From sequence record NZ_CP064874.1: 64,000 bases of DNA; one strand, given 5' to 3'. Numbering within the stretch: the first letter of the stretch is position 1; each line of letters starts with the position of its first letter. Positions 43,525 through 57,649 of the stretch are shown piece by piece. Made by a program: the position numbers and the translations under genes. This stretch comes from a plasmid. Under the pieces are notes generated by a model. That model did no database searches. It was not told the origin of the DNA and saw only the letters and a list, made by a program, of their open reading frames with translations.

Positions 43525-43625
43525 GAACGAGTCTCCTCATCAGGCGTCTGTAGCTCAGACCATAGCCGAGGGGTCTGTTGCCCGGAGCCGGGACATCGCC
43601 TGTGGTGCCGTGAGACGATGCGTCG

Positions 43626-44132
43626 ATGAAGACGACCCATCGCGACGGCGAGGCGGGTGGGCTGCGGATGCCGGCCGTGTGGGATCGGGCCTCGCTCGAG
43701 GCGGTCGGGTTCGTGGGGTTCGTTCGATTCGCGGATCTTGCGGCCGCGAGGGTGCCGACTGAGGCGGGGATCTACGTGGTGCTGCGTCCGGCGGCGACGT
43801 CGCCGGAGCTGCTCGAGCTGACGCGAGCGCGGGCGGGATCCGCCTACCCTTTGGATGACCTCGCGGCTCGGTGGGTGTCGGGGACGCCGGTGCTGTACAT
43901 CGGCAAGGCAGAGGCGAAAGTGGGCGGGCTGCGCAAGCGGCTGGGGCAGTTCGCGCGGAAGGGTGCCAGCCACCAGGGCGGGCGTTCGATCTGGCAGCTG
44001 GCCGATCAAGACGAGCTGCTCGTTGCGTGGGTGACGACGCCGGAGGAGTCCGCGGAGGACGTGGAGGTTCGCTACCGCGCCGCGTTCGCTGACGTGTTCG
44101 GTCGCTGGCCGTTCGCGAACCGGAAGCGATGA
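43626..44132 (+). CDS. GIY-YIG nuclease-family protein
   Basis: GIYVVLRP...PVLYIGKAEAKVGGLRKRLGQF is the GIY...YIG catalytic motif pair. Confidence 0.65.
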   Translation: MKTTHRDGEAGGLRMPAVWDRASLEAVGFVGFVRFADLAAARVPTEAGIYVVLRPAATSPELLELTRARAGSAYPLDDLAARWVSGTPVLYIGKAEAKVGGLRKRLGQFARKGASHQGGRSIWQLADQDELLVAWVTTPEESAEDVEVRYRAAFADVFGRWPFANRKR

Positions 44133-44205
44133 GGGCAGGCGGTTGATGAGAGGGGTTTCGCCGGGGATCTAGGTTGCTACCGCGGGCCTGTGTACGCTCT
44201 CGGCC

Positions 44206-44790
44206 ATGAGGGCAGACAGGTTTGAGGACGTGGAACTTGGCGCGTTTGAGCGCTTCTATGACGAGCGACCCTTCGAGGGGCGCAGCTATCCCGGCCCATA
44301 CTTCGAGACCGAGATCGCGTCGGGCATGAAGCGCGGGTTAGCGGTGTCCGTGGAGGGGCCTACGGTCGATGACGCGCGGGCGCTCATGGATCAGGTGAGG
44401 GCCATTATCGCCCGCCCGCTGCCCACCCACGAGATGTACTCTGCGCTGCTCGAGACATTCCCCAAGGCGTTCCCCTGGAATACCCCAAGACAGATGAGCT
44501 ATGCCGTCACGCCGAGTGCCATTTGCGTCGGAAGGGAGGGAGACTACTCAGTCCACTTCGACGTCGACTCGGAAGACGACACTCAAGTCGACTATTGGCC
44601 TGTCGTGTGGCTTGACCGTGACGGCAACATTCTGAGCGCTCACGCCGATGGCGGACGTGGCGAATATCCCGGAGGTCGGGACTACACCCTCCCGGAGGCG
44701 ACCGAGGCGTTGGTGCGATCCTGGCCGTCGAAGAACATTTGGGCAGAGGACATCGCGACCCGTCTGGACAAACTGGACGGGCTGGGCTGA
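44206..44790 (+). CDS. hypothetical protein (194 aa)
   Basis: Intact ORF downstream of the GIY-YIG gene, ending at a bidirectional hairpin (gccccgcgttcgtcgacggggc). Confidence 0.45.
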   Translation: MRADRFEDVELGAFERFYDERPFEGRSYPGPYFETEIASGMKRGLAVSVEGPTVDDARALMDQVRAIIARPLPTHEMYSALLETFPKAFPWNTPRQMSYAVTPSAICVGREGDYSVHFDVDSEDDTQVDYWPVVWLDRDGNILSAHADGGRGEYPGGRDYTLPEATEALVRSWPSKNIWAEDIATRLDKLDGLG

Positions 44791-44826
44791 GCCCCGCGTT
44801 CGTCGACGGGGCCCAGCGCGGCGGTG

Positions 44827-45192
44827 TCAGCCTCGTGCGGCTGCCAGCTCAGCGTCGATCCGGCGCCGCTCGCCGCCGGGGTGAGTGCTGCCCAGCAGCA
44901 CGACGCGGCGATCCCATGCGACCTCACCCGTGAGCGAGTCGACCCAGTCGGTGACGTCGGCGCGCTGCGCCTCGGTCAGCTGGTCGACGGCCAGGCCGGG
45001 CAGGATCGTATCGGGCAGGGTGAGGGTCTTGCGCAGGTACTCGAAGTCAACCTCGTTGCGCCAGGCGCGCTCCGACTCGATGAACCGGTCGATCTGCGCG
45101 TTGTCGGGGTGCCACTGGCATCCGCCGATGCAGGCCTCCTCGGGGTCGACGGACTGAAACCAGACGGCGTGTACGGTGCGGTTGGTGGTCAT
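44827..45192 (-). CDS. cassette gene: hypothetical protein (121 aa; start MTTNRTV)
   Basis: ATG after GGGAGGATGCC, 20 bp from palindrome 45213-45229. Confidence 0.55.
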   Translation of the reverse strand: MTTNRTVHAVWFQSVDPEEACIGGCQWHPDNAQIDRFIESERAWRNEVDFEYLRKTLTLPDTILPGLAVDQLTEAQRADVTDWVDSLTGEVAWDRRVVLLGSTHPGGERRRIDAELAAARG

Positions 45193-45212
45193 GGCATCCT
45201 CCCGGATTGCTA

Positions 45213-45229
45213 GTGAATGTGACATTCAT
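45213..45229 (-). promoter_or_regulatory. palindrome variant GTGAATGTGACATTCAT, copy 7
   Basis: Direct read. Confidence 0.65.
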
Positions 45230-45312
45230 AGGCTACGGGGGGCCTCCGACATTGGCAGCGGCGAGCGCCGCGAGGGGCGGGGCGGGCGGTGTGCCCGCCC
45301 CGCCGGGTTGGG

Positions 45313-45828
45313 TTACTCGCGCTCCCAGTCGGTGACTTCCGCGTCGATCGAGTCGGCGACGTAGTTGTCGGATCGGAGCGACTCGATCACGTCTTCGACG
45401 GTGTACGCCTCGATCGCGAGGTCTTCCGCTTCGTCCGACGTGCGGGCGGTGACCGAGACGGTAACGCGCTGGGTCAGTGTGACGGAGAGGGTCACCCGGA
45501 AGTCGCGCTCGCGCGGGGTGCCGCCGATCGCTTCCACGAGCCGGTCGTACTCGGAGCAGAAGCCCTCATCGTTGGCGATCTGCTCACCCTTCTCCCAGAT
45601 CGCCGCGAGCCGGTCGTCGGCGGCGTCGGTGATCGGCAGTCGCAGCCTGTCGATCTCGCGCTGCTGCCGTTCGACGGTCAGCGCGAGATCCGCGGCCTGC
45701 GCCTGGGCGGCGACGAGATCGGCCTGCGTGCGGGCCATCTCCCCGACGTAGGCGCCGCGCCGCTCGGTGACCGGGGCGGGCATGTCGAGCTGGCCCTGAG
45801 CGAACTCGATGTTGGTGGTGGTTGCCAT
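45313..45828 (-). CDS. cassette gene: hypothetical protein (171 aa), coiled-coil-like N-terminal half
   Basis: ATG after AAGGAGGACACC, 24 bp from palindrome 45853-45869. Confidence 0.55.
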   Translation of the reverse strand: MATTTNIEFAQGQLDMPAPVTERRGAYVGEMARTQADLVAAQAQAADLALTVERQQREIDRLRLPITDAADDRLAAIWEKGEQIANDEGFCSEYDRLVEAIGGTPRERDFRVTLSVTLTQRVTVSVTARTSDEAEDLAIEAYTVEDVIESLRSDNYVADSIDAEVTDWERE

Positions 45829-45852
45829 GGTGTCCTCCTTGGAACGTAGGCG

Positions 45853-45869
45853 GTGAATGTGACATTCAC
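45853..45869 (-). promoter_or_regulatory. palindrome GTGAATGTGACATTCAC, copy 8
   Basis: Direct read. Confidence 0.7.
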
Positions 45870-45910
45870 AGGCTACGGGGGGCCTCCGACATTGCTGCGG
45901 CGAGCGCGGC

Positions 45911-45942
45911 AGTGCCCCGCCGGTAGATCCCGGCGGGGCACT
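45911..45942 (-). terminator. conserved GC hairpin terminator (GCCCCGCCGG-tagatc-CCGGCGGGGC)
   Basis: 10-bp perfect stem immediately after the 45952 gene stop. Near-identical copies occur at ~46885, 47988, 48734, 50533, 50855 and 51630. Confidence 0.6.
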
Positions 45943-45951
45943 GGGGGAGGT

Positions 45952-46371
45952 TCAGCTGGCGGGTGGTGTGAGTGCCGCGAGGAGTGCTCTGAGGGCGTCC
46001 ACAGCCCCGTCACGGGCCTCGAAGACGGCATCCATGGTATCGGCCTCTGTGGAGCGCTCGGCCTCCTCGATCGCCGCCTGTGCGGCGCCGGTCAGCTCGC
46101 GCAGGCGGGCGGTGTCTGCGGCGAGCGCGAGGGGTGCTCCGTGCTCGGTGATGTGCAGCGTCCATCCGTCGCCGGTCGGGGTCGCCCACACGGTGGCGAT
46201 CGCCTGTCCTTCGGCGTTGTCGAAGTCGACCTTGCCGAAGTCGTCGCCGTGGTGGGCGAGGATGCGTGCTCGGTCGTCGACGGGCATCGAGTACAGGTGG
46301 GAGTTGCTCGGCGTCCAGGTCGCCGGTTCGGCGCGCTGGCCGGTGTCGTAGGGAGTGAGTGCGGTGGTCAT
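45952..46371 (-). CDS. hypothetical protein (139 aa; start MTTALTP); second gene of cassette 9
   Basis: Internal ATG of ORF 45952..46839 with AAAGGA RBS. Separated from the 46428 gene by hairpin gggggcgggcgcggtgcccgccccc. Confidence 0.5.
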   Translation of the reverse strand: MTTALTPYDTGQRAEPATWTPSNSHLYSMPVDDRARILAHHGDDFGKVDFDNAEGQAIATVWATPTGDGWTLHITEHGAPLALAADTARLRELTGAAQAAIEEAERSTEADTMDAVFEARDGAVDALRALLAALTPPAS

Positions 46372-46427
46372 GGCTGGTCCTTTCGTCAGAGGGTCGGGGG
46401 CGGGCGCGGTGCCCGCCCCCGGTGGTG

Positions 46428-46802
46428 TCAGCGGGTGAGCAGCCCGGCGATGATCCTGTCGACGGACTCGGCCGAGACCGTCACGGCGCAGGGGATGCAG
46501 ACCTCTGTGCGGGTGTGGCGGATGTCCTCGTGGTCCAAGATCGTGACGACGTAGTTGCGGGCGTCCTGGACGCCGCACTCGGCGCAGGAGTATCCGACCG
46601 GCGGGGCGTCGGTCTCGGTGTCGTCGTCGATGCCCTGGCGGGCCAGTTCGACGGCCTGGCCGACCCAGTAGGCGACGGCCTGGTCGTCGACGACGAACGC
46701 GCCGTCGTCGATTGCCTCGATGAGCGAGCCGCCGTGGTTGCTGGTCATCCGCTCGAGGATCGTCCGCGAGATCTCGTCGACGGTGAGTGGTGTGGGTGCC
46801 AT
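46428..46802 (-). CDS. cassette gene: hypothetical protein with CxxC...CxxC (124 aa; start MAPTPLT)
   Basis: ATG after AAGGAGGACACC, 24 bp from palindrome 46827-46843. Confidence 0.55.
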   Translation of the reverse strand: MAPTPLTVDEISRTILERMTSNHGGSLIEAIDDGAFVVDDQAVAYWVGQAVELARQGIDDDTETDAPPVGYSCAECGVQDARNYVVTILDHEDIRHTRTEVCIPCAVTVSAESVDRIIAGLLTR

Positions 46803-46826
46803 GGTGTCCTCCTTGGAACGTAGGCG

Positions 46827-46843
46827 GTGAATGTGACATTCAC
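46827..46843 (-). promoter_or_regulatory. palindrome GTGAATGTGACATTCAC, copy 9
   Basis: Direct read. Confidence 0.7.
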
Positions 46844-46924
46844 AGGCTACGGGAGGCCTCCGACATTGCTGCGGCGAGCGCGGCAGCGCCCCGCCGGTAG
46901 ATCCCGGCGGGGCGCTGGTGGGGG

Positions 46925-47356
46925 TCAGTCTTCGCCGGGGAGGGCGATGATGATGCACGCCTGGCCGGTGAGGTTGTACCCCTCGATGCTCACGCGGAGT
47001 CGCTGGCGGCTGGCGGTGGTGGCGGTGCTCGGGTTGCCGGAGCGGGTGGCGTTCGGCACGCGCAGCACGTAGGTCTCGCGCGGGACGAGATCGCCGGCGA
47101 CCTGGCGGGCGGTGGGGCGGATGACGTTGAGCACGTCCCAGAATCGGGCGTCCTCGCTCTGCCAGTCGCCCTCGCGGGTCCACTGCACCGCGGCCTCGTA
47201 GGCGGCGCGGGTGAGCAGTACCGTGAGCCGGTATCCGGCCTCGAGGGCGGTGGCGGGGTTGAAGTGCAGCAGCAGCCCGTCTGCGACGGCCTCCTCTGCG
47301 GTGTAGACGGCGATGATTTCTGCGCCCTTGAACGGGTTTTCGCTCTGCTCGGTCAT
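46925..47356 (-). CDS. cassette gene: hypothetical protein (143 aa)
   Basis: ATG after GGGAGGACACC; the upstream palindrome is degenerate. Confidence 0.55.
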   Translation of the reverse strand: MTEQSENPFKGAEIIAVYTAEEAVADGLLLHFNPATALEAGYRLTVLLTRAAYEAAVQWTREGDWQSEDARFWDVLNVIRPTARQVAGDLVPRETYVLRVPNATRSGNPSTATTASRQRLRVSIEGYNLTGQACIIIALPGED

Positions 47357-47380
47357 GGTGTCCTCCCGGATCGCTTGCTA

Positions 47381-47399
47381 GTGAATGTGACGCTTACAC
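47381..47399 (-). promoter_or_regulatory. degenerate palindrome GTGAATGTGAC-gc-TTACAC, copy 10
   Basis: 2-bp insertion plus substitutions; flanking leader conserved. Confidence 0.5.
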
Positions 47400-47466
47400 T
47401 CTAAGTGAGGGGTCAGACATTGGGCCCGGCGGGTGAGCGCAGGACGATGGGGAGACGGCGGCGTGC

Positions 47467-47979
47467 ATGACTGAGACGTGGATCTACGAGCGCACGGCGG
47501 ACAACTCTGCGCGCTTCGTGCTGGGGACGGTGGGCGTAAACCCTCTCGTGTGCGTCGGTGTGAACCCCAGCACCGCGGCGCCGGGAGACCCGGATCGCAC
47601 CGTCAGCAAGGTCATGGGGTTCGCGGCCCGAAACGGGTTCGACAGCTGGGTGATGCTGAACCTCTACCCGCAGAGATCCATCGACCCCAAGGGCATGCAC
47701 CTGGTGCACGACCCCCAGCTGCAAGCCGATAACGAGCGACACATCGCCGATCTCATCGGCGGACGCCAGCTCACGATCGTCGCCGCGTGGGGCGAGCTGA
47801 TCCGATCCCGCCCTTACCTCCCGCAGATGCTTGAGGGCATCGCCTCGGTGACGGATGCCTCCGGCTGTGACTGGGTGTCGATCGGCGATCTGCTCAAGAG
47901 CGGGCACCCCCGGCATCCGTCACGCGCCCGCTACGCCTGGCCGTTGCAGAGCTTCGACGTGGCGAGCTATCTGGCCTAG
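47467..47979 (+). CDS. DUF1643-like protein (170 aa), plus-strand insertion
   Basis: FVLGTVGVNPLVCVGVNPSTAAPGDPDRTV...WVMLNLYPQRS pattern; convergent with the array genes. Confidence 0.5.
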   Translation: MTETWIYERTADNSARFVLGTVGVNPLVCVGVNPSTAAPGDPDRTVSKVMGFAARNGFDSWVMLNLYPQRSIDPKGMHLVHDPQLQADNERHIADLIGGRQLTIVAAWGELIRSRPYLPQMLEGIASVTDASGCDWVSIGDLLKSGHPRHPSRARYAWPLQSFDVASYLA

Positions 47980-48024
47980 ACGTGACGGTGCCCCGCCGAT
48001 TGATCCCGGCGGGGCACCGTGCGG

Positions 48025-48369
48025 CTATTCCTCGTCCTCCGACCATTCCAGGCGGGGGTCGAAGTGGAACCGCTCGCGGGCCTCGTTGTGGGCGAGGTCG
48101 TCGCTGCGGGCCACGTACTCGTCCTCGCTGAGCCGGGAGCCGTGGCCGTTCGCCCAGGGGAGCGGGTCGCGGTCACCGTCGCTCTCGGCCAGCCAGGTCT
48201 CGCGGATGATGTGGTCAGCGGTGCCGGTGTGCCCCAGCTCGTCGAACAGGTCGGCGAGGATGCGGCCCTCGGTCATGTTGATCGAGCTGAACACGTCGTC
48301 ATGCCACCTGCCGATCATGTCGGCCGCGGCCGCGACGACGGCGAGGTCGGGGATCGTTCCGCTGCTCAT
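48025..48369 (-). CDS. cassette gene 2 of a pair: hypothetical acidic protein (114 aa; start MSSGTIP)
   Basis: ATGA overlap with 48366..48650. Confidence 0.5.
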   Translation of the reverse strand: MSSGTIPDLAVVAAAADMIGRWHDDVFSSINMTEGRILADLFDELGHTGTADHIIRETWLAESDGDRDPLPWANGHGSRLSEDEYVARSDDLAHNEARERFHFDPRLEWSEDEE

Positions 48370-48650
48370 CGCTGCACCTTCCCCAGTCCCCAGTCGGCTC
48401 GTTCCTCGTCGGCCATCCACACGGCCCGGTCGAGCGCGTGGTGAAGGTCGACGCCGCGCGCGTCGGCCAAGTGCACGAGATCCGTGAGCACGTCCCGGAT
48501 CGCCTGGTCCGGCTCGCTCGGCTCGTCGTCGTACCAGGCCGCGATGAGCGTGTCCGTGCGGAACCGCGAGCGCTGCATGGTGTCGGTCTCGGTGTTCGCG
48601 TGCAGCTCGCGGCTCATCGTGAGCTCGAGCTGCGTGGTGGGGTTTGCCAT
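48366..48650 (-). CDS. cassette gene: hypothetical acidic protein (94 aa)
   Basis: ATG after GGAGGACACC, 24 bp from palindrome 48675-48691. Confidence 0.55.
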   Translation of the reverse strand: MANPTTQLELTMSRELHANTETDTMQRSRFRTDTLIAAWYDDEPSEPDQAIRDVLTDLVHLADARGVDLHHALDRAVWMADEERADWGLGKVQR

Positions 48651-48674
48651 GGTGTCCTCCAGGATCGTTGGCTA

Positions 48675-48691
48675 GTGAATGTGACATTTAC
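48675..48691 (-). promoter_or_regulatory. palindrome variant GTGAATGTGACATTTAC, copy 11
   Basis: Direct read. Confidence 0.65.
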
Positions 48692-48775
48692 AGCCTAGGG
48701 AGGGGGTCAGACATTGGCCGCGGCGAGCGCGACGGTGCCCCGCCGGATGATCCCGGCGGGGCACCGATTAGAGCG

Positions 48776-49354
48776 TCAGCGGCGGATGCCGCGCGCCCAG
48801 TAGAGCGCCCACGGCAGGTCGAACCGTGCCGCGATGCCGTCGTGGGCGATGTGCAGCGCGCTCGCCGCGTACCGGCGCGTGGGGAGCGGCTGGATGCGCT
48901 GCGGGTGCACGTCTCGCTCGGGAGCCTGGTGCGGGGTGCTGCCGGTGAGGATGCGGCGGGCCGTGCCCTGGTAGGCGCGGTCGGCGTAGCCGGTGATGAC
49001 CTGGAAGGCCACGAAGCCGGGCCCGCCCCACGGGGCGGCGTACTCCGTGTCGAACAGCCTCCACGTCTCGGTGATCGTCCGCGCGGCCGGATCGAAGCTG
49101 CGAGTGTGGATGACCGCCTCCGGGTCGTCCGGCCGCTCGGCCTCGATCGCGTCCAGCGCCGTGCCCAGCCGGTCGAGCACGCGGCGAGCGCGGGCGATCT
49201 CATCGCGGCTGCTGAGCGCGTCGTGGTCGCCGCGGTCGATCGAGTGCACCCACTCATCGCAGGCCCACGCGGTGAGCGGGAACGTCTCAAGGCATGCCCA
49301 GTCGCGGAACGCCTCGACGATCGGGTTGCGCCGGGTCGCGCTCGCCGCGGTCAC
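48776..49354 (-). CDS. cassette gene 2 of a pair: hypothetical protein (192 aa, GTG start overlapping upstream stop)
   Basis: GTGA overlap with 49351..49794. Confidence 0.5.
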   Translation of the reverse strand: MTAASATRRNPIVEAFRDWACLETFPLTAWACDEWVHSIDRGDHDALSSRDEIARARRVLDRLGTALDAIEAERPDDPEAVIHTRSFDPAARTITETWRLFDTEYAAPWGGPGFVAFQVITGYADRAYQGTARRILTGSTPHQAPERDVHPQRIQPLPTRRYAASALHIAHDGIAARFDLPWALYWARGIRR

Positions 49355-49794
49355 GGTGCCACCACCCGCAGGGAGCGCAGCCAGTCGACCTCTTGGGCGT
49401 CGAGAACATGCCCGGTCGTGATCCAGTCGGCGGCATCGTCGGTGCCGTCGAGATCGCGGAGCGTGTACACCTGGCGGGGGGCGTCGTCGTGTTCGGGGTT
49501 GCCGTCGTAGATCGTGCCGTCGTTGAGGAACACCCGGATGCGGCCGGTGCTCTCGGTGGTGTCGATCTGCGCGACGGCCGCGCCGTCGATGAGGGACACG
49601 TACCCGTGCACGTCGATGCCTGCGGCCTCGCCTGCGTGGTCGGCGACGGCCCGCTCGGCGGCGCCGGTCGCGAGCGCGCGGATCGCGTCGGCGTCCACGT
49701 CGCCCTGGCCGAGCGCTTGGGTGAGCCCGTCGATGTCCTCGTAGTTGAGCGCGATCGTCTCGGCGACGATCTCGCTGATCGGTTTGGTTGCCAT
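49351..49794 (-). CDS. cassette gene: highly acidic protein (147 aa)
   Basis: ATG after GGGAGGACACC, 24 bp from palindrome 49819-49835. Confidence 0.55.
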   Translation of the reverse strand: MATKPISEIVAETIALNYEDIDGLTQALGQGDVDADAIRALATGAAERAVADHAGEAAGIDVHGYVSLIDGAAVAQIDTTESTGRIRVFLNDGTIYDGNPEHDDAPRQVYTLRDLDGTDDAADWITTGHVLDAQEVDWLRSLRVVAP

Positions 49795-49818
49795 GGTGTC
49801 CTCCCGGATCGTTGGCTA

Positions 49819-49835
49819 GTGAATGTGACGTTCAC
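49819..49835 (-). promoter_or_regulatory. palindrome variant GTGAATGTGACGTTCAC, copy 12
   Basis: Direct read. Confidence 0.65.
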
Positions 49836-49907
49836 AGCCTAGGGAGGGGGTCGGACATCGGCGCGCGCTCGCCGCGAACGTGGGGCGCTCGCCGATGTCC
49901 GGGCGGG

Positions 49908-50453
49908 CTACATCTGCCCGACATCCCGCGCCATGCGCTCGCGGAACGCCGCGCACGCCGCGTCGATGACGGCGGCACGATAGGTGCTGCTCTCGCCCGC
50001 GGGGAGGGTCGCGAGCGCGTCTCGGAGGGCGGTGCGGGTGCTGTAGTGCAGAGCCTCGGATGCCTTGTGCGCCGAGCGGGTGCTGATGTCGTGGGTGATC
50101 CGCTCGATGATCTCCGGGACGGTGAGTGGGGGCAGCTCGAAGCGGTAGCCGGCGAGGTCGGCCAGGATGATCGCGCGCTGCCGATCGGTGAGCGGGGTGC
50201 CGTACCCGCTGCTGGGGTACAGCTCGAGGTCTCCGCTGCGGCCAGCCCGGATGTTCACGCGGACGTAGGGACGCTCGGCGCGGCCGATGCGCACGTTGCT
50301 GATGCGCTCGCCGCTGTCGGGGTCGATCGGGCAGAGGTCGGCGCGCGGCTCGCCGAGTGTGGGGCCGGGCTCGTGACTGCGGGCGTCGGAGACCTCCCAG
50401 GTCAGTCCGGCCGCGGTGAGTCGGTCGCCGAAGGTGAGGGGTGCGGTTGCCAT
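49908..50453 (-). CDS. cassette gene: hypothetical protein (181 aa)
   Basis: ATG after GGGAGGACACC, 24 bp from palindrome 50478-50494. Confidence 0.55.
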   Translation of the reverse strand: MATAPLTFGDRLTAAGLTWEVSDARSHEPGPTLGEPRADLCPIDPDSGERISNVRIGRAERPYVRVNIRAGRSGDLELYPSSGYGTPLTDRQRAIILADLAGYRFELPPLTVPEIIERITHDISTRSAHKASEALHYSTRTALRDALATLPAGESSTYRAAVIDAACAAFRERMARDVGQM

Positions 50454-50477
50454 GGTGTCCTCCCGGATCGTTGGCTA

Positions 50478-50494
50478 GTGAATGTGACGTTCAC
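50478..50494 (-). promoter_or_regulatory. palindrome variant GTGAATGTGACGTTCAC, copy 13
   Basis: Direct read. Confidence 0.65.
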
Positions 50495-50587
50495 AGCTTA
50501 CGGGTGGGGTCGGACACTGCGGCGAGCGCGGCAGCGCCCCGCCGGTCAGTTCCGGCGGGGCGCTGCGGGAGGGGTCGTGCTCGTCGC

Positions 50588-50776
50588 CTACTGGGGGGAG
50601 AGGGCGTTGGTGACCTGAGTCTTGATCTCTTCGGCGGCGAGGATCATCGCGCCGTCCTTGTGTGACTCGCCGTAGGCCGCGATCACGCCCGCGATCGCGC
50701 CCCATTCGGCTGCGGCCAGGCTCACGGGGATGGGCTTCGGCTGTGATCCTGCGGGCGATCCGCTCTCGCTGGTCAT
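50588..50776 (-). CDS. cassette gene: small hydrophobic/Ala-rich protein (62 aa)
   Basis: ATG after CAGGAGGACACC; palindrome 50800-50816. Confidence 0.5.
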   Translation of the reverse strand: MTSESGSPAGSQPKPIPVSLAAAEWGAIAGVIAAYGESHKDGAMILAAEEIKTQVTNALSPQ

Positions 50777-50799
50777 GGTGTCCTCCTGGGTGTCAGGTA

Positions 50800-50816
50800 G
50801 TGAATGTGATGTTCAC
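50800..50816 (-). promoter_or_regulatory. palindrome variant GTGAATGTGATGTTCAC, copy 14
   Basis: Direct read. Confidence 0.6.
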
Positions 50817-50895
50817 AGTCTAGGGCGGGGGTCGGACATTGCGGCGAGCGCGACAGCGCCCCGCCGGTAGATCCCGGCGGGGCGCTGTCGGTGGG

Positions 50896-51108
50896 TCAGT
50901 AGTCCTCGTCGGTGCGGGCGAGGGTGTCGATGATCCGCAGTCCGTTGTGGAGGGGGATGGTGACGGTGGACAGGAGCGTGTAGCCCTGTGCGCCGTAGGC
51001 GTTCAGGTCGTCGTCGCGCTGCTGGCGAGCGCGGTTGCTGGCGATCTCGCCCTCCGCCTCGGTGTACTGGCGGGTGTCGATGGTGATGAATCGAGTGCGG
51101 TTTGCCAT
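50896..51108 (-). CDS. cassette gene: small protein (70 aa)
   Basis: ATG after GGGAGGACACC; palindrome 51133-51149. Confidence 0.5.
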   Translation of the reverse strand: MANRTRFITIDTRQYTEAEGEIASNRARQQRDDDLNAYGAQGYTLLSTVTIPLHNGLRIIDTLARTDEDY

Positions 51109-51132
51109 GGTGTCCTCCCGGATCGTTGGCTA

Positions 51133-51149
51133 GTGAATGTGACATTCAC
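51133..51149 (-). promoter_or_regulatory. palindrome GTGAATGTGACATTCAC, copy 15
   Basis: Direct read. Confidence 0.7.
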
Positions 51150-51184
51150 AGCCTACGGGTGGCCTCCGACATTGGAGCTGCCCA

Positions 51185-51219
51185 CGGGTATAGGCCTCGG
51201 TTTCGGGGGTTCGCAGACA
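51185..51219 (-). promoter_or_regulatory. repeat family 2 copy
   Basis: cgggtataggcctcggtttcgggggttcgcagacat. Confidence 0.45.
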
Positions 51220-51272
51220 TCGCAGGGCGGTGCCCCGCGACCGTCGCCGCGAGGCACCACACGAGGGGCTGG

Positions 51273-51545
51273 CTATGCGCCGGGGCACTCGGTGTCGATG
51301 TCGTCCTGGTCGAGCGGCAACAGTCCGCACGCCTGGCAGGTCGTCGTCCCGGTGAAGCGGCCGCTCTGCCACTGGTGGGCGAGCGGCTCGGCGGGTGCGT
51401 CCTCGTCGTCGGTGTCCATGGTCGCGGTCGCGCCGCAGTCCAGGCACCGGGCGGCGACGTCGCCGTTGAGGGTGACGACGACGCCGGGGACGCCGGAGAG
51501 CCATTCGATGTTGGCGTGGTCGCAGTCGGTAGTGGTGGTGGCCAT
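51273..51545 (-). CDS. cassette gene: zinc-ribbon acidic protein (90 aa; CxxC...CxxC)
   Basis: ATG after GGGAGGACATC; palindrome 51570-51586. Confidence 0.5.
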   Translation of the reverse strand: MATTTTDCDHANIEWLSGVPGVVVTLNGDVAARCLDCGATATMDTDDEDAPAEPLAHQWQSGRFTGTTTCQACGLLPLDQDDIDTECPGA

Positions 51546-51569
51546 GATGTCCTCCCGGAACGCTGGCTA

Positions 51570-51586
51570 GTGAATGTGACATTCAC
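51570..51586 (-). promoter_or_regulatory. palindrome GTGAATGTGACATTCAC, copy 16
   Basis: Direct read. Confidence 0.7.
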
Positions 51587-51667
51587 AGTCTAGAGAGGGG
51601 ATCGGACATCGGCGGCGAGCGCACGCGACGGTGCCCTGCCGGTCGTCCGGCGGGGCACCGCGTGGGG

Positions 51668-52066
51668 TCAGGCCGCGTCGAGCGGCGTCCAGTCCCGTTC
51701 GTGGGCGGGGGTGTAGTCGATCAGCGCCGCGAGGCGGTCGCGTGCGGCCTGTAGCGCCTCGATCTCGGTGTCGTTGCTGTCGCCCTCGGCGGCGGCGAAA
51801 GTGTCCTCGATCAGACCGGCGATCTCCTTCTGTGCCGCCTCGTCGATGAGGGTGAGGCGGGCGATCTCGCCGTCCGGGTAGCGGGCATCCAGCGCCGCGG
51901 CGTCCTGGTAGTCGAAGGCCCACTGCTCGCCGAGGATCGCGAACGCCGCGGCGATGTCGCGGCCGCGGTCGCCGGTGCTGATCGCGACGTAGCCGCGGTT
52001 CAGGCCGGTGCCGACGTGCGGGTGCAGGTCGGCGTGGTCGGGGCCGAAGGTGATGTAGGTGGTCAT
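51668..52066 (-). CDS. cassette gene: acidic protein (132 aa)
   Basis: ATG after GGGAGGACACC; palindrome 52091-52107. Confidence 0.55.
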   Translation of the reverse strand: MTTYITFGPDHADLHPHVGTGLNRGYVAISTGDRGRDIAAAFAILGEQWAFDYQDAAALDARYPDGEIARLTLIDEAAQKEIAGLIEDTFAAAEGDSNDTEIEALQAARDRLAALIDYTPAHERDWTPLDAA

Positions 52067-52090
52067 GGTGTCCTCCCGGATCGGTTGGTA

Positions 52091-52107
52091 GTGAATGTGA
52101 CGTTCAC
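52091..52107 (-). promoter_or_regulatory. palindrome variant GTGAATGTGACGTTCAC, copy 17
   Basis: Direct read. Confidence 0.65.
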
Positions 52108-52211
52108 AGTCTAGGGCGGGGGTCGGACATCGCCGCGGGGTGTCGGTCGTGGGGTGCGTGGTGCGTGAGCGCCCCAGCCGAGGCGTAGGGCGCTCACGTC
52201 GTGGGGTGTGG

Positions 52212-52610
52212 CTACGCCTTCCAGGTGCCTTCCCAGCCCTCGGGGAGACGCACGCCGTGCTCGCCGTGCTCGTCGGTCTGGTGCAGGTACACGAGCACGT
52301 CGCCGGGGTCGGGGTCGGCCTCGTACTGCGGCACGGTGCGCTCGATGGTGTTGATCTGGCCGACGCTGTTGTAGCGCACGTCCACGTCGATCGCGCGCAG
52401 GTAGCCGTCCTCGACGTTGACGTGCTGATCGCAGCGCGGGCACCACAGCACGACGCGCTCGCCGTAGTCGGTCGGCTCGTCGAGCTCGACGATGCGCAGC
52501 GCGGGGAAATCGGCTGCCTCGATCTCGTGCATGACGCTCCACAGCCGGTCGATCAGGTCGTCGGCAGGGATGCGGGGAGCGGCCGCGGCCGCGGGTTCGG
52601 TGGTGGTCAT
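52212..52610 (-). CDS. cassette gene: protein with CPRC motif (132 aa)
   Basis: ATG after CAGGAGGACACA. The upstream leader is a deletion remnant (52611-52650). Confidence 0.5.
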   Translation of the reverse strand: MTTTEPAAAAAPRIPADDLIDRLWSVMHEIEAADFPALRIVELDEPTDYGERVVLWCPRCDQHVNVEDGYLRAIDVDVRYNSVGQINTIERTVPQYEADPDPGDVLVYLHQTDEHGEHGVRLPEGWEGTWKA

Positions 52611-52650
52611 TGTGTCCTCCTGGGAACGGTGAAGGCCTGCGGCGAGCGCG
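52611..52650 (-). repeat. leader remnant: conserved leader with the palindrome-to-GGCCT segment deleted
   Basis: cctgggaacggtgaa|ggcctgcggcgagcgcggg aligns to ccttggaacgtaggcggtgaatgtgacattcacaggctacggggggcctccgacattgctgcggcgagcgcgg minus ~35 bp. Confidence 0.5.
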
Positions 52651-52768
52651 GGCGGGGATTAGAACTCGAGGTGCTCCCGCCGAGGGGAGGGGCGTGTAGC
52701 CGGCTCCCCTCGGGTGGGTGGTGCTCGCCGCCGCCGGGGTAGGTGTGCACCCGGCGGCGGCGAGGGGG

Positions 52769-53152
52769 TCAGACGGCTTCGACCAGCCCAGGGCTGACGC
52801 GCCAGCCGTTGGCGAGCGTGTACGACTTGGGGTTGGTGCGGACGATGAGCGTCTCGACTCCGGCCAGCCCGTCACGGGTGGTGCGCGGGTTGGCGACGAT
52901 GCGCACGCGGGTTCCGGGGATCAGGCTCGGCAGCGCGGCCGCGGTGGCTTGCAGGGCAGCGGCGAGCGCGTCGTCGCTGTGCCCGGTCGGCTCGACGGTG
53001 GCGGTGCGGGCGAGGGTGTACACCTTGCCGGGTTCGGTGAGGGCTGCGATCTTCGCCTTGGTGCGGGCGAAGTCGATCAGCACGTACTCGGTGCCGCGGA
53101 AGCGGAACGTGTCGCCGGGGGTGCGGGTGATGAGGGTGGTGGTGTCGGTCAT
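52769..53152 (-). CDS. cassette gene: hypothetical protein (127 aa; start MTDTTTL)
   Basis: ATG after AAGGAGGACGCC; palindrome 53177-53193. Confidence 0.55.
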   Translation of the reverse strand: MTDTTTLITRTPGDTFRFRGTEYVLIDFARTKAKIAALTEPGKVYTLARTATVEPTGHSDDALAAALQATAAALPSLIPGTRVRIVANPRTTRDGLAGVETLIVRTNPKSYTLANGWRVSPGLVEAV

Positions 53153-53176
53153 GGCGTCCTCCTTGGACTCTCGACG

Positions 53177-53193
53177 GTGAATGTGACATTCAC
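53177..53193 (-). promoter_or_regulatory. palindrome GTGAATGTGACATTCAC, copy 18
   Basis: Direct read. Confidence 0.7.
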
Positions 53194-53261
53194 AGGCTAC
53201 GGGTGGCCTCCGACATTGGGCGGGGCGGGCGGCGCGGTCTGCGCGCCCGCCCCGGCGTGGG

Positions 53262-53840
53262 TCACTGGGCGGCGATCGCCGCGGTGATCTCGGCGGTGAC
53301 CCGCTCGCGCTTGGCGTCGGCATCGCGCCCCGGCTCGAAGTGACCGAACGCGGTCAGGTACGCCTCGATCTGCCCGCGCAGGTACTCGGTGTTGCTGGCG
53401 TCGGCGTTGAGGCCGATGATCGCGTAGCGCGCTGCGCTCGCCGCGGCCCGCCAGCCGCTCTGCGTGAGGCCGTGGGGGTCGCCCTCGGGGAGCGAGTAGG
53501 GCTGCTCGATCTGGCCGTCGCGCGCGGTGTACTTGGTGACGGTGCGCTCGGTGACCACGACGGCATCCAGATAGTCGGGGTCGCCCTGCCCGCCGAGGGG
53601 CACCCACACCTGGGGGTCGTCGTCCGGGTGGTCGGCGTCGATGCGAGCGAGCAGGGCGGGCATTGCGGGGTCGAGGGTGAACGGGTCGCTGAGGCTGTAG
53701 TCGTCCCAGGCCTGGCGCAGCTCGTCCGGCTCGATGGTCGTCCATCCCTCGTCGAACTCGGCGCGCAGCGGAGCGTGGAAGCGGATCGCGCGCTCGACGG
53801 CTGCGCGGATGTCGTGGACGTTGTTGATGGTCTCGGTCAT
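53262..53840 (-). CDS. cassette gene: hypothetical acidic protein (192 aa)
   Basis: ATG after GGGAGGACTCC; palindrome 53865-53881. Confidence 0.55.
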   Translation of the reverse strand: MTETINNVHDIRAAVERAIRFHAPLRAEFDEGWTTIEPDELRQAWDDYSLSDPFTLDPAMPALLARIDADHPDDDPQVWVPLGGQGDPDYLDAVVVTERTVTKYTARDGQIEQPYSLPEGDPHGLTQSGWRAAASAARYAIIGLNADASNTEYLRGQIEAYLTAFGHFEPGRDADAKRERVTAEITAAIAAQ

Positions 53841-53864
53841 GGAGTCCTCCCGGAACGATTGCTA

Positions 53865-53881
53865 GTGAATGTGACATTCAT
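53865..53881 (-). promoter_or_regulatory. palindrome variant GTGAATGTGACATTCAT, copy 19
   Basis: Direct read. Confidence 0.65.
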
Positions 53882-53974
53882 AGGCTACGGGTGGCCTCCG
53901 ACATCGCGCGGGGACATCGCGAGTGCGTCACGGGCGAGTGCCCGCCGGGGTGACCGGCGGGCACTCGGTGACGC

Positions 53975-54985
53975 TCAGCGGGCGAACGCCCAATCCGGGA
54001 GCACGGCTGCCGAGCAGAGGGTCGCGACGATCTGGCTCATGCCGTGGTCGGGGTCGATCGCGAGGGCGCGGTCGGTGTAGACGGTGGCGTGAGTGGATCG
54101 GCCCAGCGCCCAGGACAGCCAGGCGGCGGCGGCGAGCAGGTTGGGGCGCTCCTGGTCGTCGGCGTAGGCGGCAAGGTGGCGCACGAGCGCGAGTCCCGCC
54201 GTCAGCCGGTCGGCGTCGGGGCGGTCGCCCTGTCCGTAGAGGGTGCGGGCGATGCTCTCGGGGACGGGTGCGCCCATGATCGAGTGGCCGATCTGCGCGG
54301 CCAGGGCACGGGTGCCGTTGCCGCGGTCGGTGGCCCACTGGATGAGGGCCACGTCACGCCACAGCGGGATGCCGATGCCGGTGAGCAGGATCGCAGCCTG
54401 GCGGGTGTCGAGGTCGGCGGGGTCACCGGTCAGGGCGTCCTCCGCGACGGCGACGAAGTCCGCGAGGGCATCGTCGTCCATCCGCGCGGCCGCGAACGCG
54501 ATCCGGGCGGCACGCGCCGGGTCGGCGTCGGGGATGCTCGCCCCGGCGGTCTGGGATGCTGCGACCTTCTCGCGCAGCGCGTCCGGGGTCGCGATCTCGG
54601 CGACGGGGCGCGGTGCCTCGCCGGTCAGGTGGCTGCCGTAGCCGTCGCTGGCGACGTAGAGCACGTCCACCAGGTGCAGTCCCTGCCGGTCGGCGACATC
54701 GGCGATCTGCTGGCCGAGATCGCGGGTGCTGTCGGCGTCCTCGGCGGCGTAGATCACGGCGGCTACCCCGGTCACGCGCGGCACTCGGCAGACCAGCCCG
54801 AGGCCGGTGTGCGCGAGCGTCGCGGCATCCGCGTCGAGGTCGAGTCGCATCGCCCCGATCGTGCGCGACGCCTCGAAGGGCACGAGCACGAGCGAGTCCT
54901 GCGGGGTGAAGCCGAGCAGCGCGGGCACGAGGCCGAGGAAGTCGCGCGGGGTGCCCGCCTTGATGGTGGTCGGTGTGGTGGCCAT
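53975..54985 (-). CDS. cassette gene: 336-aa protein, possibly DUF4192-like
   Basis: N-terminus GTPRDFLGLVPALLGFTPQDSLVLVPF...RTIGAMRLDL resembles the DUF4192 start (recall-based, low certainty). ATG after GGGAGGACACC; palindrome 55010-55026. Confidence 0.5.
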   Translation of the reverse strand: MATTPTTIKAGTPRDFLGLVPALLGFTPQDSLVLVPFEASRTIGAMRLDLDADAATLAHTGLGLVCRVPRVTGVAAVIYAAEDADSTRDLGQQIADVADRQGLHLVDVLYVASDGYGSHLTGEAPRPVAEIATPDALREKVAASQTAGASIPDADPARAARIAFAAARMDDDALADFVAVAEDALTGDPADLDTRQAAILLTGIGIPLWRDVALIQWATDRGNGTRALAAQIGHSIMGAPVPESIARTLYGQGDRPDADRLTAGLALVRHLAAYADDQERPNLLAAAAWLSWALGRSTHATVYTDRALAIDPDHGMSQIVATLCSAAVLPDWAFAR

Positions 54986-55009
54986 GGTGTCCTCCCGGAA
55001 CGTTGGCTA

Positions 55010-55026
55010 GTGAATGTGACATTTAC
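55010..55026 (-). promoter_or_regulatory. palindrome variant GTGAATGTGACATTTAC, copy 20 (outermost leader; array boundary ~55050)
   Basis: Leader homology stops after ..ccgacattgg at ~55051. Confidence 0.65.
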
Positions 55027-55046
55027 AGGCTACGGGAGGCCTCCGA

Positions 55047-55564
55047 CATTGGTCGATGCACGCCAGGAGCCGACTCCCGACTGGCTCGTCGAAGGAGCAA
55101 CCCTCGGAGAGCTCGCCGGGAAGATCGACGTTCCCGCCCAGGCGCTGGCCGAGACGGTCGCGCGATTCAACGAGCACGCCGCCCGTGGGGAGGATCCGGA
55201 CTTCCACCGCGGTGCGAGCGCGTACGACCGCTACTGGGGAGACGAACAGAACCCGTATCCCAATCCCAGCCTCGCACCGCTCGAGCAAGGCCCCTACTAC
55301 GCTCTCGCCGTGGTGAACGGCTGCTTCGGCACCAGCGGAGGGATCGCCACCGACGGCCTCGGAAGGGTCCTCGACGCAGACGGCGATGCCATACGCGGCC
55401 TGTTTGCGGTCGGCAACGCCTCCGAGAACGCCTTCGCCGCCGGCTACCCCGGCGCCGGCGCCACGCTCGGTCCGATCATGACCATGGCCTACCTTCTCGG
55501 GCGTACCGCCAGCGGCGCGTCGATCGGCGACCTGAGCCTTGCCGACGGAGCCGGGGCACGATGA
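55047..55564 (+). pseudogene. FAD-binding dehydrogenase (3-ketosteroid-delta1-dehydrogenase/fumarate-reductase flavoprotein-like), C-terminal ~170 aa only
   Basis: ..DWLVEGATLGELAGKIDVPAQALAETVARFNEHAARGEDPDFHRGASAYDRYWGD...GLFAVGNAS... is the C-terminal region of KstD-like flavoproteins. The upstream part of the same frame is leader sequence (VNVTFTGYGRPPTL), so the N-terminal ~400 aa are absent. Confidence 0.6.
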
Positions 55565-55860
55565 TCCGTCACGTCGTGTTCTTCTCGTTCGCAGCGAACC
55601 ATGATCCTGCCGTGCTCGAGGAGTGGCGCGACCTGCTCGATGGTCTGCTCGGAAAGATTCCCGGCCTGGTCCGACTGTCACACGGCCCCGACGTGATGCG
55701 CAGCGAACGCGCATGGGACTATGCACTCGTCGCCGACTTCCGCACCCTCGACGATGTCCGTGCCTACGCGACGCACCCCGCGCATCTGCCGCTCTTCCCT
55801 CTCTCCGGAGCGATCTCGGAGCAGATCGCCTCGGTCGACTTCGAGATCGACGAGCAGTAG
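55561..55860 (+). CDS. Dabb-family stress-responsive alpha/beta-barrel protein
   Basis: 99 aa starting MIRHVVFFSF; ATGA overlap with the kstD-like stop. Confidence 0.65.
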   Translation: MIRHVVFFSFAANHDPAVLEEWRDLLDGLLGKIPGLVRLSHGPDVMRSERAWDYALVADFRTLDDVRAYATHPAHLPLFPLSGAISEQIASVDFEIDEQ

Positions 55861-55878: not shown

Positions 55879-56415
55879 GTGAAGAGCGAGGATGGTTTCT
55901 CGATGCCCCGAGTACGTGCGGTCACCCCCACCGTGGCAGAGGAGCTCCGCGACCTGAAGGCACGCTATTTTCACTACGTCGACCTGAAGCAGTGGGACGA
56001 ACTGCGCGGACTCTTCGTGGACGACTGCGTCTTCGAAGGACTGTGGGCCGCCGCGCCCGACCCCGACACGTTCGTGGAGAACCTGATGCGCAACATGACC
56101 GAAGAGGTCGTCAGCGTCCATCACGGGTTCATGCCGCAGTTTCGGCGGATCGATGACTTCTCGGCTCGCGGGCGCTGGGCCATGACCGACTATCTGACGT
56201 GGCCACGCGGGTCACGAGGGTATATGGGGATCACCGTGCCGGAACAGAGGGGGATGCGGGGATATGGCTACTACGAGGAGCTCTACCGACTCACCGAGTC
56301 CGGCTGGCGCATCGCCTTCATGCGACTGAGCCGGATCCGCATGGATCCCATCGTTGGCGACGCGCCTGCGATCGACTACCCGGTGGTTCCCGCGGTCCCC
56401 GGCTGGCTGGACTGA
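55879..56415 (+). CDS. SnoaL-like / NTF2-family protein
   Basis: 178 aa of the SnoaL_4-type common in steroid/aromatic clusters. Confidence 0.55.
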   Translation: MKSEDGFSMPRVRAVTPTVAEELRDLKARYFHYVDLKQWDELRGLFVDDCVFEGLWAAAPDPDTFVENLMRNMTEEVVSVHHGFMPQFRRIDDFSARGRWAMTDYLTWPRGSRGYMGITVPEQRGMRGYGYYEELYRLTESGWRIAFMRLSRIRMDPIVGDAPAIDYPVVPAVPGWLD

Positions 56416-56464: not shown

Positions 56465-57649
56465 TCAGGTGAGGGTGTGGAGGGGCCAGCCGGTGTATGC
56501 CTCGGCGAGGAAGCGGCGGCCGGCTTCGGACTCGACGACGGATTGGAGCTCTCCGAGCTGGCGGAGGCGGTCGAAGTCCCTTGCATCGGGGGCGACGTGA
56601 AGCATGCTGGTCATCCACCAGGAGAAGTGCTGGGCCTTCCAGATGCGGTGCAGCGCCGTCTCGGGGAAGGCCTCGACGAGGCGGCTGTCCCTCTCGAGCA
56701 GAAGCGCGCGCAGCGCGCGCTCGAGAACGAGGACGTCGGCTACGGCAAGGTTCATGCCTTTCGCGCCGGTGGGCGGCACGGTATGGGCGGCGTCGCCGAT
56801 GAGTGCGAGGCGGCCGCGAAGCAGTTCGAGGGCGACGAAGCTCCGGAATCGCAGCACGTCGCGTTGGAAGACGGGGCCTTCCTTGAGCGTCGTCCCCGGC
56901 ACCCGCTTCTGCAGTTCTTCCCACAGTTGCTCCTCGGTGAGGGTGCTGGGGTCGGTGCGGGGATCGCATTGGAAGTACATGCGCTGCACGGTGGTGCTTC
57001 GCTGGCTGATGAGCGCGAAGCCATCGGGGGAGTTGCTGTAGATGAGCTCGTCGGCGCTGGGCGGCGCCTCGCAGAGGATGCCGAACCAGGCGAACGGGTA
57101 CTCGCGGAAGTGCCCGCCTGTGTGGGAACCGGTTACGGCCTCCCGCACGACACTGCGTGACCCGTCGGCGCCGACGACGAACTCGGCCTCGATCTCGAGA
57201 GGCGATCCGTCTGCGCCGGTGGCGATGACGCGTGGGCGGTCGGACGCGGGGTCCTCGATACGATGCGCCGTCACGCCGAAGCGCAGGTCTTGGCCACTGG
57301 AGAGCCGCGCGGCGATGAGATCCTTCAGGACTTCGTGCTGCGGGTACAGCCACACACCGCGGCCGACGAGGTCGGCGAAGTCGATGCGGTGTCCGCTGCC
57401 GGCGAAGCGGAGCTCGATGCCGTCGTGGCGGTCTCCCAGGGTGCGGGCGCGGCTGAACGCGCCGAGCGTGTCGAGCACCTCGACGGTGCCCTGTTCGAGG
57501 ATGCCTGCCCGGATCGTGGTCTCGATCTCTTCACGGGAACGCTGATCGATGACGACTGACTCGAGGCCGGACGCCGCGAGCAGATGCGACAGCAGCAGTC
57601 CGGCGGGTCCAGCGCCGACGATGGCGACGCGGGTGCGGATGGTGGACAT
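56465..57649 (-). CDS. pobA: 4-hydroxybenzoate 3-monooxygenase
   Basis: VAIVGAGPAGLLLSHLL...IRAGILEQGTVEVL...GDAAHTVPPTGAKGMNLA; 394 aa. Confidence 0.85.
   Translation of the reverse strand: MSTIRTRVAIVGAGPAGLLLSHLLAASGLESVVIDQRSREEIETTIRAGILEQGTVEVLDTLGAFSRARTLGDRHDGIELRFAGSGHRIDFADLVGRGVWLYPQHEVLKDLIAARLSSGQDLRFGVTAHRIEDPASDRPRVIATGADGSPLEIEAEFVVGADGSRSVVREAVTGSHTGGHFREYPFAWFGILCEAPPSADELIYSNSPDGFALISQRSTTVQRMYFQCDPRTDPSTLTEEQLWEELQKRVPGTTLKEGPVFQRDVLRFRSFVALELLRGRLALIGDAAHTVPPTGAKGMNLAVADVLVLERALRALLLERDSRLVEAFPETALHRIWKAQHFSWWMTSMLHVAPDARDFDRLRQLGELQSVVESEAGRRFLAEAYTGWPLHTLT

Follow-up and report, generated by a model that had tools for sequence, protein, structure and literature searches.

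A Truncated ChcC1-like Flavoprotein Gene at the Border between Catabolic Cargo and the Probable Backbone of a Mosaic Microbacterium Plasmid

The stretch of plasmid DNA examined here (64,000 nucleotides of sequence record NZ_CP064874.1, referred to throughout as the window and numbered from its first letter) carries an array of ∼20 minus-strand transcription units (31981–55066), each placed under a copy of the same ∼65-nucleotide leader. The array stops abruptly at a joint near position 55066, beyond which lies the 3′ end of a gene for a flavoprotein of the KstD superfamily (55067–55564, plus strand). The window probably derives from a mosaic Microbacterium plasmid that is both conjugative and catabolic, the joint being an old scar left where catabolic cargo was joined to the plasmid backbone. 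This polarity is the reverse of that in the original prediction, which had taken the array for a 23-kb cassette element joined to a chromosomal gene; comparison with related plasmids indicates that the array is the resident backbone of a conjugative plasmid and the catabolic DNA the insert. A transposon as the cause of the break in the backbone is somewhat favored, because the joint lies within 1 nucleotide of a position that has been used at least seven times by related elements.

Collinearity of the Array with Plasmid pYJNG

The array is collinear, at 95–99.8% identity, with pYJNG of Microbacterium sp. YJN-G, a circular plasmid of 148.6 kb that carries a MobF relaxase, FtsK/SpoIIIE, genes like those of type IV secretion systems, two Tad pilus clusters, ParA, and a large primase-like gene. 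Window positions 31981–41512 correspond to 90205–99734 of pYJNG (99.8% identity) and positions 43176–55066 to 135271–147158 (98.7%); within the second segment the identity is ∼99.9% at 43176–52500 and ∼95% from 52500 to 55066. The patchy identity suggests exchange of alleles within the array, possibly via the repeated leaders. In pYJNG and in two other related sequences, L195 and L197, a cassette for a 294-residue protein with its own leader precedes the leader of the DUF4192 gene, the last array gene in the window, and this arrangement represents the unoccupied state of the joint site; the DUF4192 gene of L195 and L197 is 90% identical to that of the window. Because the array is collinear with pYJNG, continues past its 20th leader in these three sequences, and is flanked by accessory DNA, it is read as resident backbone. 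Backbone-like sequence also resumes on the far side of the catabolic DNA. In six other assemblies the right end of the catabolic block is seen ∼12.8 kb from the joint, beyond the window, and in L188–L192 it is followed by 105 nucleotides with 94% identity to a stretch that is unique in pYJNG (148419–148523), 1.26 kb past the joint position. Because this pYJNG-like sequence resumes at its right edge, the catabolic block is taken to be embedded in the backbone, of which it would have replaced ∼1.26 kb, that is, one 294-residue cassette and its leader.

Some further features of pYJNG and its relatives should be recorded. In PLSDB, with MOB-suite typing, pYJNG (L178) is classed as non-mobilizable, even though a MobF relaxase, FtsK/SpoIIIE, a VirB4-like ATPase, and conjugal transfer proteins are annotated in it (65877–69410). 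Between the two collinear segments, ∼35.5 kb of pYJNG (99735–135270, with the insertion sequence IS256, HipA, TnpB, P450, and other catabolic genes) replaces 1.66 kb of the window (41513–43175). Because this pYJNG cargo truncates a plus-strand open reading frame of 393 codons (40919–42100), the window appears to keep the older arrangement here. The ARD31-type copy of the array differs from the window mainly at 51.67–53.0 kb. A search of the literature for the array or the joint found nothing; strain YJN-G itself appears in papers as a degrader of iprodione.

The Gene Remnant

The plus-strand reading frame that adjoins the array (55049–55564) is matched by the Pfam family FAD_binding_2 (PF00890) at positions 320–414 of 414 only (E 1e-20) and by the NCBIfam family NF053676 (ChcC1, 4-oxocyclohexanecarboxylate 2-dehydrogenase) at positions 378–526 of 528 (149 positions, 260 bits), so that by both profiles it corresponds to the last ∼29% of the family. 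In full-length relatives homology to it begins at residue 409 of 569, close to the codon ∼400 of the original prediction; what is left is 165 codons and a stop (55067–55564), with ChcC1 as the closest family and with the N-terminal ∼408 residues, including the FAD-binding fold, absent. The closest full-length relative (L001, from Microbacterium sp. NPDC076895, 569 residues) is 78% identical over the shared C terminus. A tblastn search of the whole 64-kb window with a full-length relative (E ≤ 10) found the C-terminal part alone, in agreement with the earlier observation that no N-terminal FAD-binding part lies nearby. In 77 of 80 related genomic loci the alignment runs in one piece over nearly the full length of the gene; one locus (L049) aligns in two pieces, and the remaining two are a 548-bp contig identical to the window (L004) and a C-terminal fragment (L037). 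Because only the end of the profile is matched, 77 of the 80 relatives are near full length, and the window holds no 5′ part, the open reading frame reads firmly as a 3′ remnant, for which pseudogene remnant appears to be the proper annotation rather than “FAD-binding protein.”

The label “kstD-like” proved right at the level of the superfamily, the solved relatives of the full-length L001 protein being the 3-ketosteroid Δ1-dehydrogenase structures 7p18 and 4c3x of the Protein Data Bank. The lost gene may well have had a ChcC1-type substrate, although, in comparison with the ChcC1 and KstD enzymes, only ∼29% of the protein is left in the remnant, and even the L001 protein scores 931 bits against NF053676, under the curated cut-off of 1000. 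The C-terminal fragment in Mycolicibacterium frederiksbergense (L037, ∼9947–10462) belongs to the same flavoprotein family, is annotated as a 170-residue “FAD-binding protein,” and has been recorded on 19 contigs; either another remnant, of independent origin, or a genuine short form may be at hand. Comparison of the related loci with the window by tblastx gave uninformative noise.

The Two Boundaries of the Array

The array side of the joint is formed by the DUF4192 gene (53975–54985, minus strand; Pfam PF13830, E 9e-23), with its start codon at 54985–54983, and by leader copy 20 (54986–55052, minus strand), in which a ribosome-binding site (54990–54995), an operator palindrome (55010–55026), a −10-like hexamer TAGCCT (55027–55032), and the box AATGTCGG (55043–55050) can be recognized. 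The conserved part of the leader stops at 55052. It is followed by a backbone-specific spacer of 14 nucleotides (55053–55066) that matches pYJNG up to 147158, with 3 mismatches, in line with the local divergence of ∼5% over 52.5–55.07 kb. Read from the box, positions 55051–55060 are the 10 nucleotides that separate box and attachment position at the transposon sites described below, and 55061–55065 occupy the place of the 5-bp duplication. Homology to the flavoprotein gene starts at 55067 and base 55066 is ambiguous, which places the joint at 55065, 55066, or 55067; strand and GC skew both switch there. As had been predicted, leader copy 20 does abut a truncated kstD-like gene, of which the last third is left. 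The boundary is also as sharp as had been claimed, but it does not lie at ∼55,050, and the switch is not made without any spacer.

The left boundary of the array, predicted to lie somewhere in 31.2–32.1 kb, falls exactly at 31980|31981. No direct repeats are present at the boundaries, where the sequences ...AACCTACA|ATGCC and ...CGCCAG|GAGCC share nothing, and the window has no tRNA gene, which bears out the failure of the first reading to find an att pair or a tRNA. No integrase was found among those open reading frames of the array that were scanned, among the annotated genes of the matching plasmid segments, or up to 10 kb rightward in other assemblies; with a transposon terminus at the left edge, neither an integrase nor an att site is called for. 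The 5′ part of the flavoprotein gene is absent at the left boundary, where a transposon end and a remnant of a LysE gene are found, and simple insertion of the array into the gene is not borne out. A further possibility, that the ends of the array are products of leader-to-leader recombination, was rejected, the junctions being with unrelated DNA.

The Repeated Leader

Repeat finding and a relaxed search for the core gave 20 leader copies between 35.0 and 55.05 kb. A pattern for the 26-nucleotide leader core has 10 matches at ≤3 mismatches and none in shuffled sequence, and operator cores number 20 in the window (35036–55026) and 23 in pYJNG. Read on the minus strand, the leader consists of the box AATGTCGG(A/T)GGCC or a variant of it, a TANNNT hexamer, directly after it a perfect 17-nucleotide palindrome (GTGAATGTCACATTCAC), ∼15 nucleotides, GGAGGA, and ATG. 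Position and conservation of these parts fit a promoter, an operator, and a ribosome-binding site; a scan for promoters and terminators around the joint with E. coli-type consensus sequences gave no match. The joint likely keeps the complete promoter of the DUF4192 cassette, and nothing else there is likely to be functional today.

The array genes are mostly of unknown function, the recognized families being DUF4192, DUF6573, DUF1643, and DUF6927, with weak matches to DpnD/PcfM and Lar. Among 72,556 PLSDB plasmids pYJNG is the only carrier of the leader; the array, unusual in itself, has no match in a phage collection, and the exact operator was not found in viral contigs, so that a phage origin was set aside. 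A gene of the GntR family lies near one leader in pYJNG (2229–2741). The Microbacterium sediminis plasmid NZ_CP038257.1 (L089, 67–127558) has a sister leader (for example, at 27694–27764) with the same box, AATGTCGG[AT]GGCC, in six copies and with a TANNNT hexamer; its operator, present in 8 copies, differs (CTGTCAGATTCACA). This suggests that the two plasmid lineages may share a promoter element and have lineage-specific repressors.

Transposon Ends beside the Leaders

The left boundary of the array is formed by a transposon-like terminus, End-1 (31870–31980, plus strand), which has three repeats of ∼20 nucleotides (31891–31910, 31926–31945, and 31957–31976) and ends with ...GAGCGGGAACCTACA at 31980; the element to which this CCTACA end belongs lies to the left of the array. 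Among the 72,556 plasmids an end of the End-1 type was found in the M. sediminis plasmid only, which contains a complete element (4068–27678 of L089, 23.6 kb) with inverted TGTAGG...CCTACA ends, of which one has spaced and the other packed repeats, and with the 5-bp duplication CCGAT. It should be noted that the duplication is shown this once, the other sites having yielded one end each. All annotated genes inside the M. sediminis element are cargo (metal resistance and cytochrome c biogenesis), and no transposase is annotated.

Ends of the form TGT...ACA with subterminal repeats are found at 31870–31980 of the window, at 4068 and 27678 of the M. sediminis plasmid, and in L189, L192, L194, and L197. 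In the window the attachment position next to leader 18 (53228–53232) is unoccupied; in L189, L192, and L194 three different elements stand at exactly nucleotide 53228, and they differ in end sequence and in cargo (ArsR/P-type ATPase, MFS/TetR, and ATPase/MFS). Further transposon ends lie beside other leaders in L195 and L197. The M. sediminis site, the site at 53228, and L195 share one geometry, which in the sense of the leader is the 5-bp duplication, 10 nucleotides, and the box; the spacing in L197 is ∼7 nucleotides, and the left boundary of the array in the window stands just as far from the operator. It is always the spaced-repeat end (End-1) that is turned toward the 3′ end of the gene before it. 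At least seven separate insertions of related elements thus share a fixed position, and the joint is within 1 nucleotide of the canonical position, on the leader side, where the packed-repeat end would be expected.

The structure of the ends, the length of the duplication, and the site specificity would place these elements in a family of the Tn7/Mu/Tn5053 style. Two candidates were set aside: the ends of the Tn7-like element of pYJNG are unrelated, and an open reading frame of 546 codons at the edge of L185, considered as a transposase, is a P-type ATPase. It is tentatively proposed, with a little less than even confidence, that a new group of transposons inserts one way round, usually 10 nucleotides upstream of the box AATGTCGG[A/T]GGCC that heads arrays in at least two plasmid lineages, and that the joint is one of its sites.

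Spread of the Joint and the Left Flank

The exact DUF4192 protein of the window is encoded in ∼628 blocks of public assemblies, and no contig that carries it exceeds 200 kb. It adjoins the same remnant in 14 of the 14 places read, and five more contigs, found by way of the remnant, also span the joint. The same joint is present in ARD31, in other NCBI assemblies, and in ENA, JGI, and Logan contigs, that is, in every independent assembly examined. This speaks for a plasmid location and for an old, stably inherited joint, which is constant as a marker of its lineage while the other side of the array varies between assemblies. The plasmid region is 99.9–100% identical in many unrelated metagenomes, from marine samples including Tara (L084, L172, L179, L186, L190, and L191) and from groundwater (L087); either the plasmid has a very wide distribution or it arrives with Microbacterium through recurrent contamination of laboratories or reagents.

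At its left, the window (1–28472) consists of pieces of the M. sediminis YLB-01 plasmid that are rearranged, partly inverted, and bounded by insertion sequence (IS) elements. These segments are mostly 99.3–99.9% identical to their counterparts, with 87% for a dioxygenase segment and 89% for one short piece, and they include ISL3 and IS3-type elements, an AbiE toxin-antitoxin pair, an Eco57I-type methylase, and Rieske dioxygenase clusters. Between 28.5 and 31.9 kb lie aldolase and hydrolase genes and the LysE remnant. The latter, a degraded gene of the LysE translocator family with 72% DNA identity to a gene of a Tsukamurella plasmid, occupies a stretch of low GC content (31330–31603) just inside the transposon end and is a second gene remnant at a boundary of the array.

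The Catabolic Block

On the right of the joint, the stop codon of the remnant and the start codon of a Dabb (stress-responsive A/B barrel) gene (55561–55860, plus strand; Pfam PF07876, E 1e-16) share an ATGA, so that the predicted coupling is real. Because the intact operon of Microbacterium sp. NPDC076895 has this overlap too, the coupling is ancestral and was not made at the joint. A gene of the SnoaL_4 family follows (55879–56415, plus strand; Pfam PF13577, E 3e-19) and then, on the minus strand, the gene for the 4-hydroxybenzoate 3-monooxygenase PobA (56465–57649; NCBIfam NF006091, 479 bits against a cut-off of 351), beyond which regulator genes of the IclR and LysR types and genes for protocatechuate 4,5-cleavage extend to the end of the window. 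These genes have ∼80% DNA identity to Arthrobacter catabolic plasmids, and a few others complete the block beyond the window. According to one account, aerobic aromatization of cyclohexanecarboxylate leads to 4-hydroxybenzoate via two desaturases, among them ChcC1, which acts on 4-oxocyclohexanecarboxylate (PMC9795900). A ChcC1-like gene next to PobA and protocatechuate 4,5-cleavage genes fits the logic of such a pathway, in which the intact desaturase gene would once have fed 4-hydroxybenzoate to the adjoining PobA.

The right edge of the block appears to be a 3′ remnant of a zinc-type dehydrogenase gene, comprising its last ∼45 codons (L188, 17452–17586, equivalent to ∼67.8 kb of the window); the match, to positions 103–134 of 134 of ADH_zinc_N_2 with E 0.006, is below the cut-off and weak. 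At 62516, 62852, 63151, and 63421 the window lacks a single C that is present in ARD31 and L189, and the frames of an amidohydrolase and of LigAB are split. The four gaps are likely homopolymer sequencing errors in the source assembly of the window, although real frameshifts are possible.

Origin of the Joint

If a transposon opened the backbone at leader 20, two routes to the present joint can be envisaged. In the first, an element with TGT...ACA ends would have brought in the catabolic block, after which its leader-proximal end and the 5′ two-thirds of the flavoprotein gene would have been lost together. In the second, an element would have been excised, and foreign DNA would have been end-joined to the resulting double-strand break. 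By either route the truncated gene would be the residue of processing at leader 20, whether of the element or of the break that its excision left; the missing two-thirds of the gene and the DNA upstream of it would have been lost when the joint was made or when it was trimmed. More generally, elements of this kind would recognize a promoter, or a protein bound to it, that is found only on conjugative plasmids and that would offer up to ∼20 landing pads on each. Landing at the leaders would explain how cargo for metal resistance and catabolism builds up between cassettes.

Several observations weigh against this account in whole or in part. Because the window covers only part of its source replicon, a plasmid-derived chromosomal island is conceivable, if improbable. 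The right edge of the cargo is known solely from other assemblies, which end ∼100 nucleotides past it. No near-identical intact copy of the flavoprotein gene, and hence no donor, was found, the best matches being 78% identical in a scan of genomes (NPDC076895) and 69% in a scan of metagenomes. With regard to the transposon, the sequence at and around 55066 contains neither a transposon end nor a target duplication nor a transposase gene, and the link is one of position, noticed after the fact. Searches by tblastn with the TnsA, TnsB, and TnsC proteins of pYJNG and the protein encoded next to them, to which the search for transposases was confined, gave no match to the window, to the M. sediminis plasmid, or to any of 11 contigs. 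An insertion of the ARD31 type at 51668 is ∼46 nucleotides off the canonical position, the sole outlier.

The chief alternative is illegitimate recombination or deletion without a transposon, with the position near the box due to chance or to a fragile or selectively tolerated intergenic spot. A joint that lacks a transposon end is what such an event would leave; both edges of the cargo cut genes, the ChcC1-like gene on the left and, by the weak match, the zinc-type dehydrogenase gene on the right, as random breaks would, and the boundaries of pYJNG's own cargo (41512 and 43176 of the window) are not associated with leaders. However, a random break within 1 nucleotide of the canonical position at any of 20 leaders in 23 kb would be expected with a frequency of ∼0.3%, by an estimate made post hoc, and an origin of this kind is considered unlikely, if by no means far-fetched.

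Much less can be said for the array as a mobile element of 23 kb that entered a chromosomal kstD-like gene by integration or came to adjoin it through a deletion, with an element/host junction at 55050. A sharp boundary, a truncated gene, and the switch in strand and GC skew are features that such an event would produce. However, relatives with the empty site (pYJNG, L195, and L197), a comparison that the original prediction had proposed for finding the ends of the element, show an uninterrupted array, the reverse of an uninterrupted host gene. The array runs on past leader 20 in these relatives and is flanked by accessory DNA of the plasmid type; its left end is the transposon terminus of the flanking DNA, with neither the 5′ half of the gene nor a tRNA; and backbone resumes beyond the cargo in a region never met on a chromosome-sized contig. 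Integration of this kind is therefore very improbable.

A genuine small gene for a stand-alone C-terminal domain protein is about as poorly placed. Gene callers annotate the short open reading frame as 143, 171, 184, or 221 residues, GGGAGG lies 9 nucleotides upstream of a TTG at 55049, and there is the comparable 170-residue fragment annotated in M. frederiksbergense. An intact start and a full-length small protein, which would have spoken against truncation, did not emerge: every candidate start codon is inside the oppositely oriented leader, and the product would be without the N-terminal ∼408 residues, including the dinucleotide-binding fold, that nearly all relatives possess (the 77 of 80 described above). 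One assembly (ARD31) has a frameshift in its copy of the open reading frame, perhaps a sequencing error; as a sign of decay it is given little weight, since the window itself has four likely single-base errors relative to other assemblies. A functional short gene is accordingly regarded as most improbable. Finally, a chimeric assembly at the repeated leader, at which short-read contigs often break, in a window with four probable single-base errors of its own, is ruled out because the identical joint is spanned, with 2–10 kb on both sides, in many independent assemblies from different projects and platforms.

Relation to Known Systems

The border between backbone and cargo at 55066 resembles those of other mosaic plasmids of the Micrococcales, such as pYJNG, the plasmid of M. 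sediminis YLB-01, and the phthalate and protocatechuate plasmids of Arthrobacter (for example, A. keyseri), which likewise have sharp breakpoints between backbone and accessory DNA, remnants of genes at the edges, IS elements or transposon ends nearby, and the same blocks reshuffled from plasmid to plasmid. It differs from them in being without an IS or transposon end and yet at a position of transposon attachment. The joint is an ordinary module border of a known kind, and no description of this particular one was found.

Tn7 inserts into attTn7 at a fixed distance from the sequence that is recognized, in one orientation and with a 5-bp duplication, and the “res hunters” Tn5053 and Tn402 target plasmid sites. 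The elements beside the leaders share with these transposons the TGT...ACA termini, the subterminal repeats that are spaced at one end and packed at the other, the 5-bp duplication, the fixed position and orientation relative to a conserved sequence, and the preference for plasmid DNA. They differ in that no genes of the TnsABC or TniABQ type were found in or near the elements examined and in that they are directed to a promoter box of which each plasmid has many copies, as opposed to a single gene end or res site; at the joint under study, moreover, the end of the element is itself absent.

In IncP plasmids with KorA and KorB, and in the kil-kor systems of Streptomyces with a GntR-type KorA, one operator is repeated before many operons. 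The array would be similar in placing many transcription units under one promoter-operator, with a palindrome that probably overlaps the start of transcription, but it has at least 20 near-identical leaders that include the 5′ untranslated region and ribosome-binding site. The small, mostly one-gene units in one orientation with a repeat between them also recall the cassette arrays of integrons. In contrast to integrons, the repeat is a promoter, operator, and ribosome-binding site upstream of each gene and not an attC site downstream, the units stay collinear from plasmid to plasmid where cassettes would be shuffled, and an integrase was not seen.

The joint itself matters little, a fossil scar of this kind being expected at the module borders of mosaic plasmids. 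What changes is the reading of the region, in which the array with repeated leaders is plasmid backbone and the catabolic genes are cargo. The interest beyond the joint lies in part in the transposon hot spot, which, if it is real, would represent a new rule of target choice among the cargo-carrying transposons of Actinomycetota and a way for plasmids such as this one to gather genes for metal resistance and degradation.

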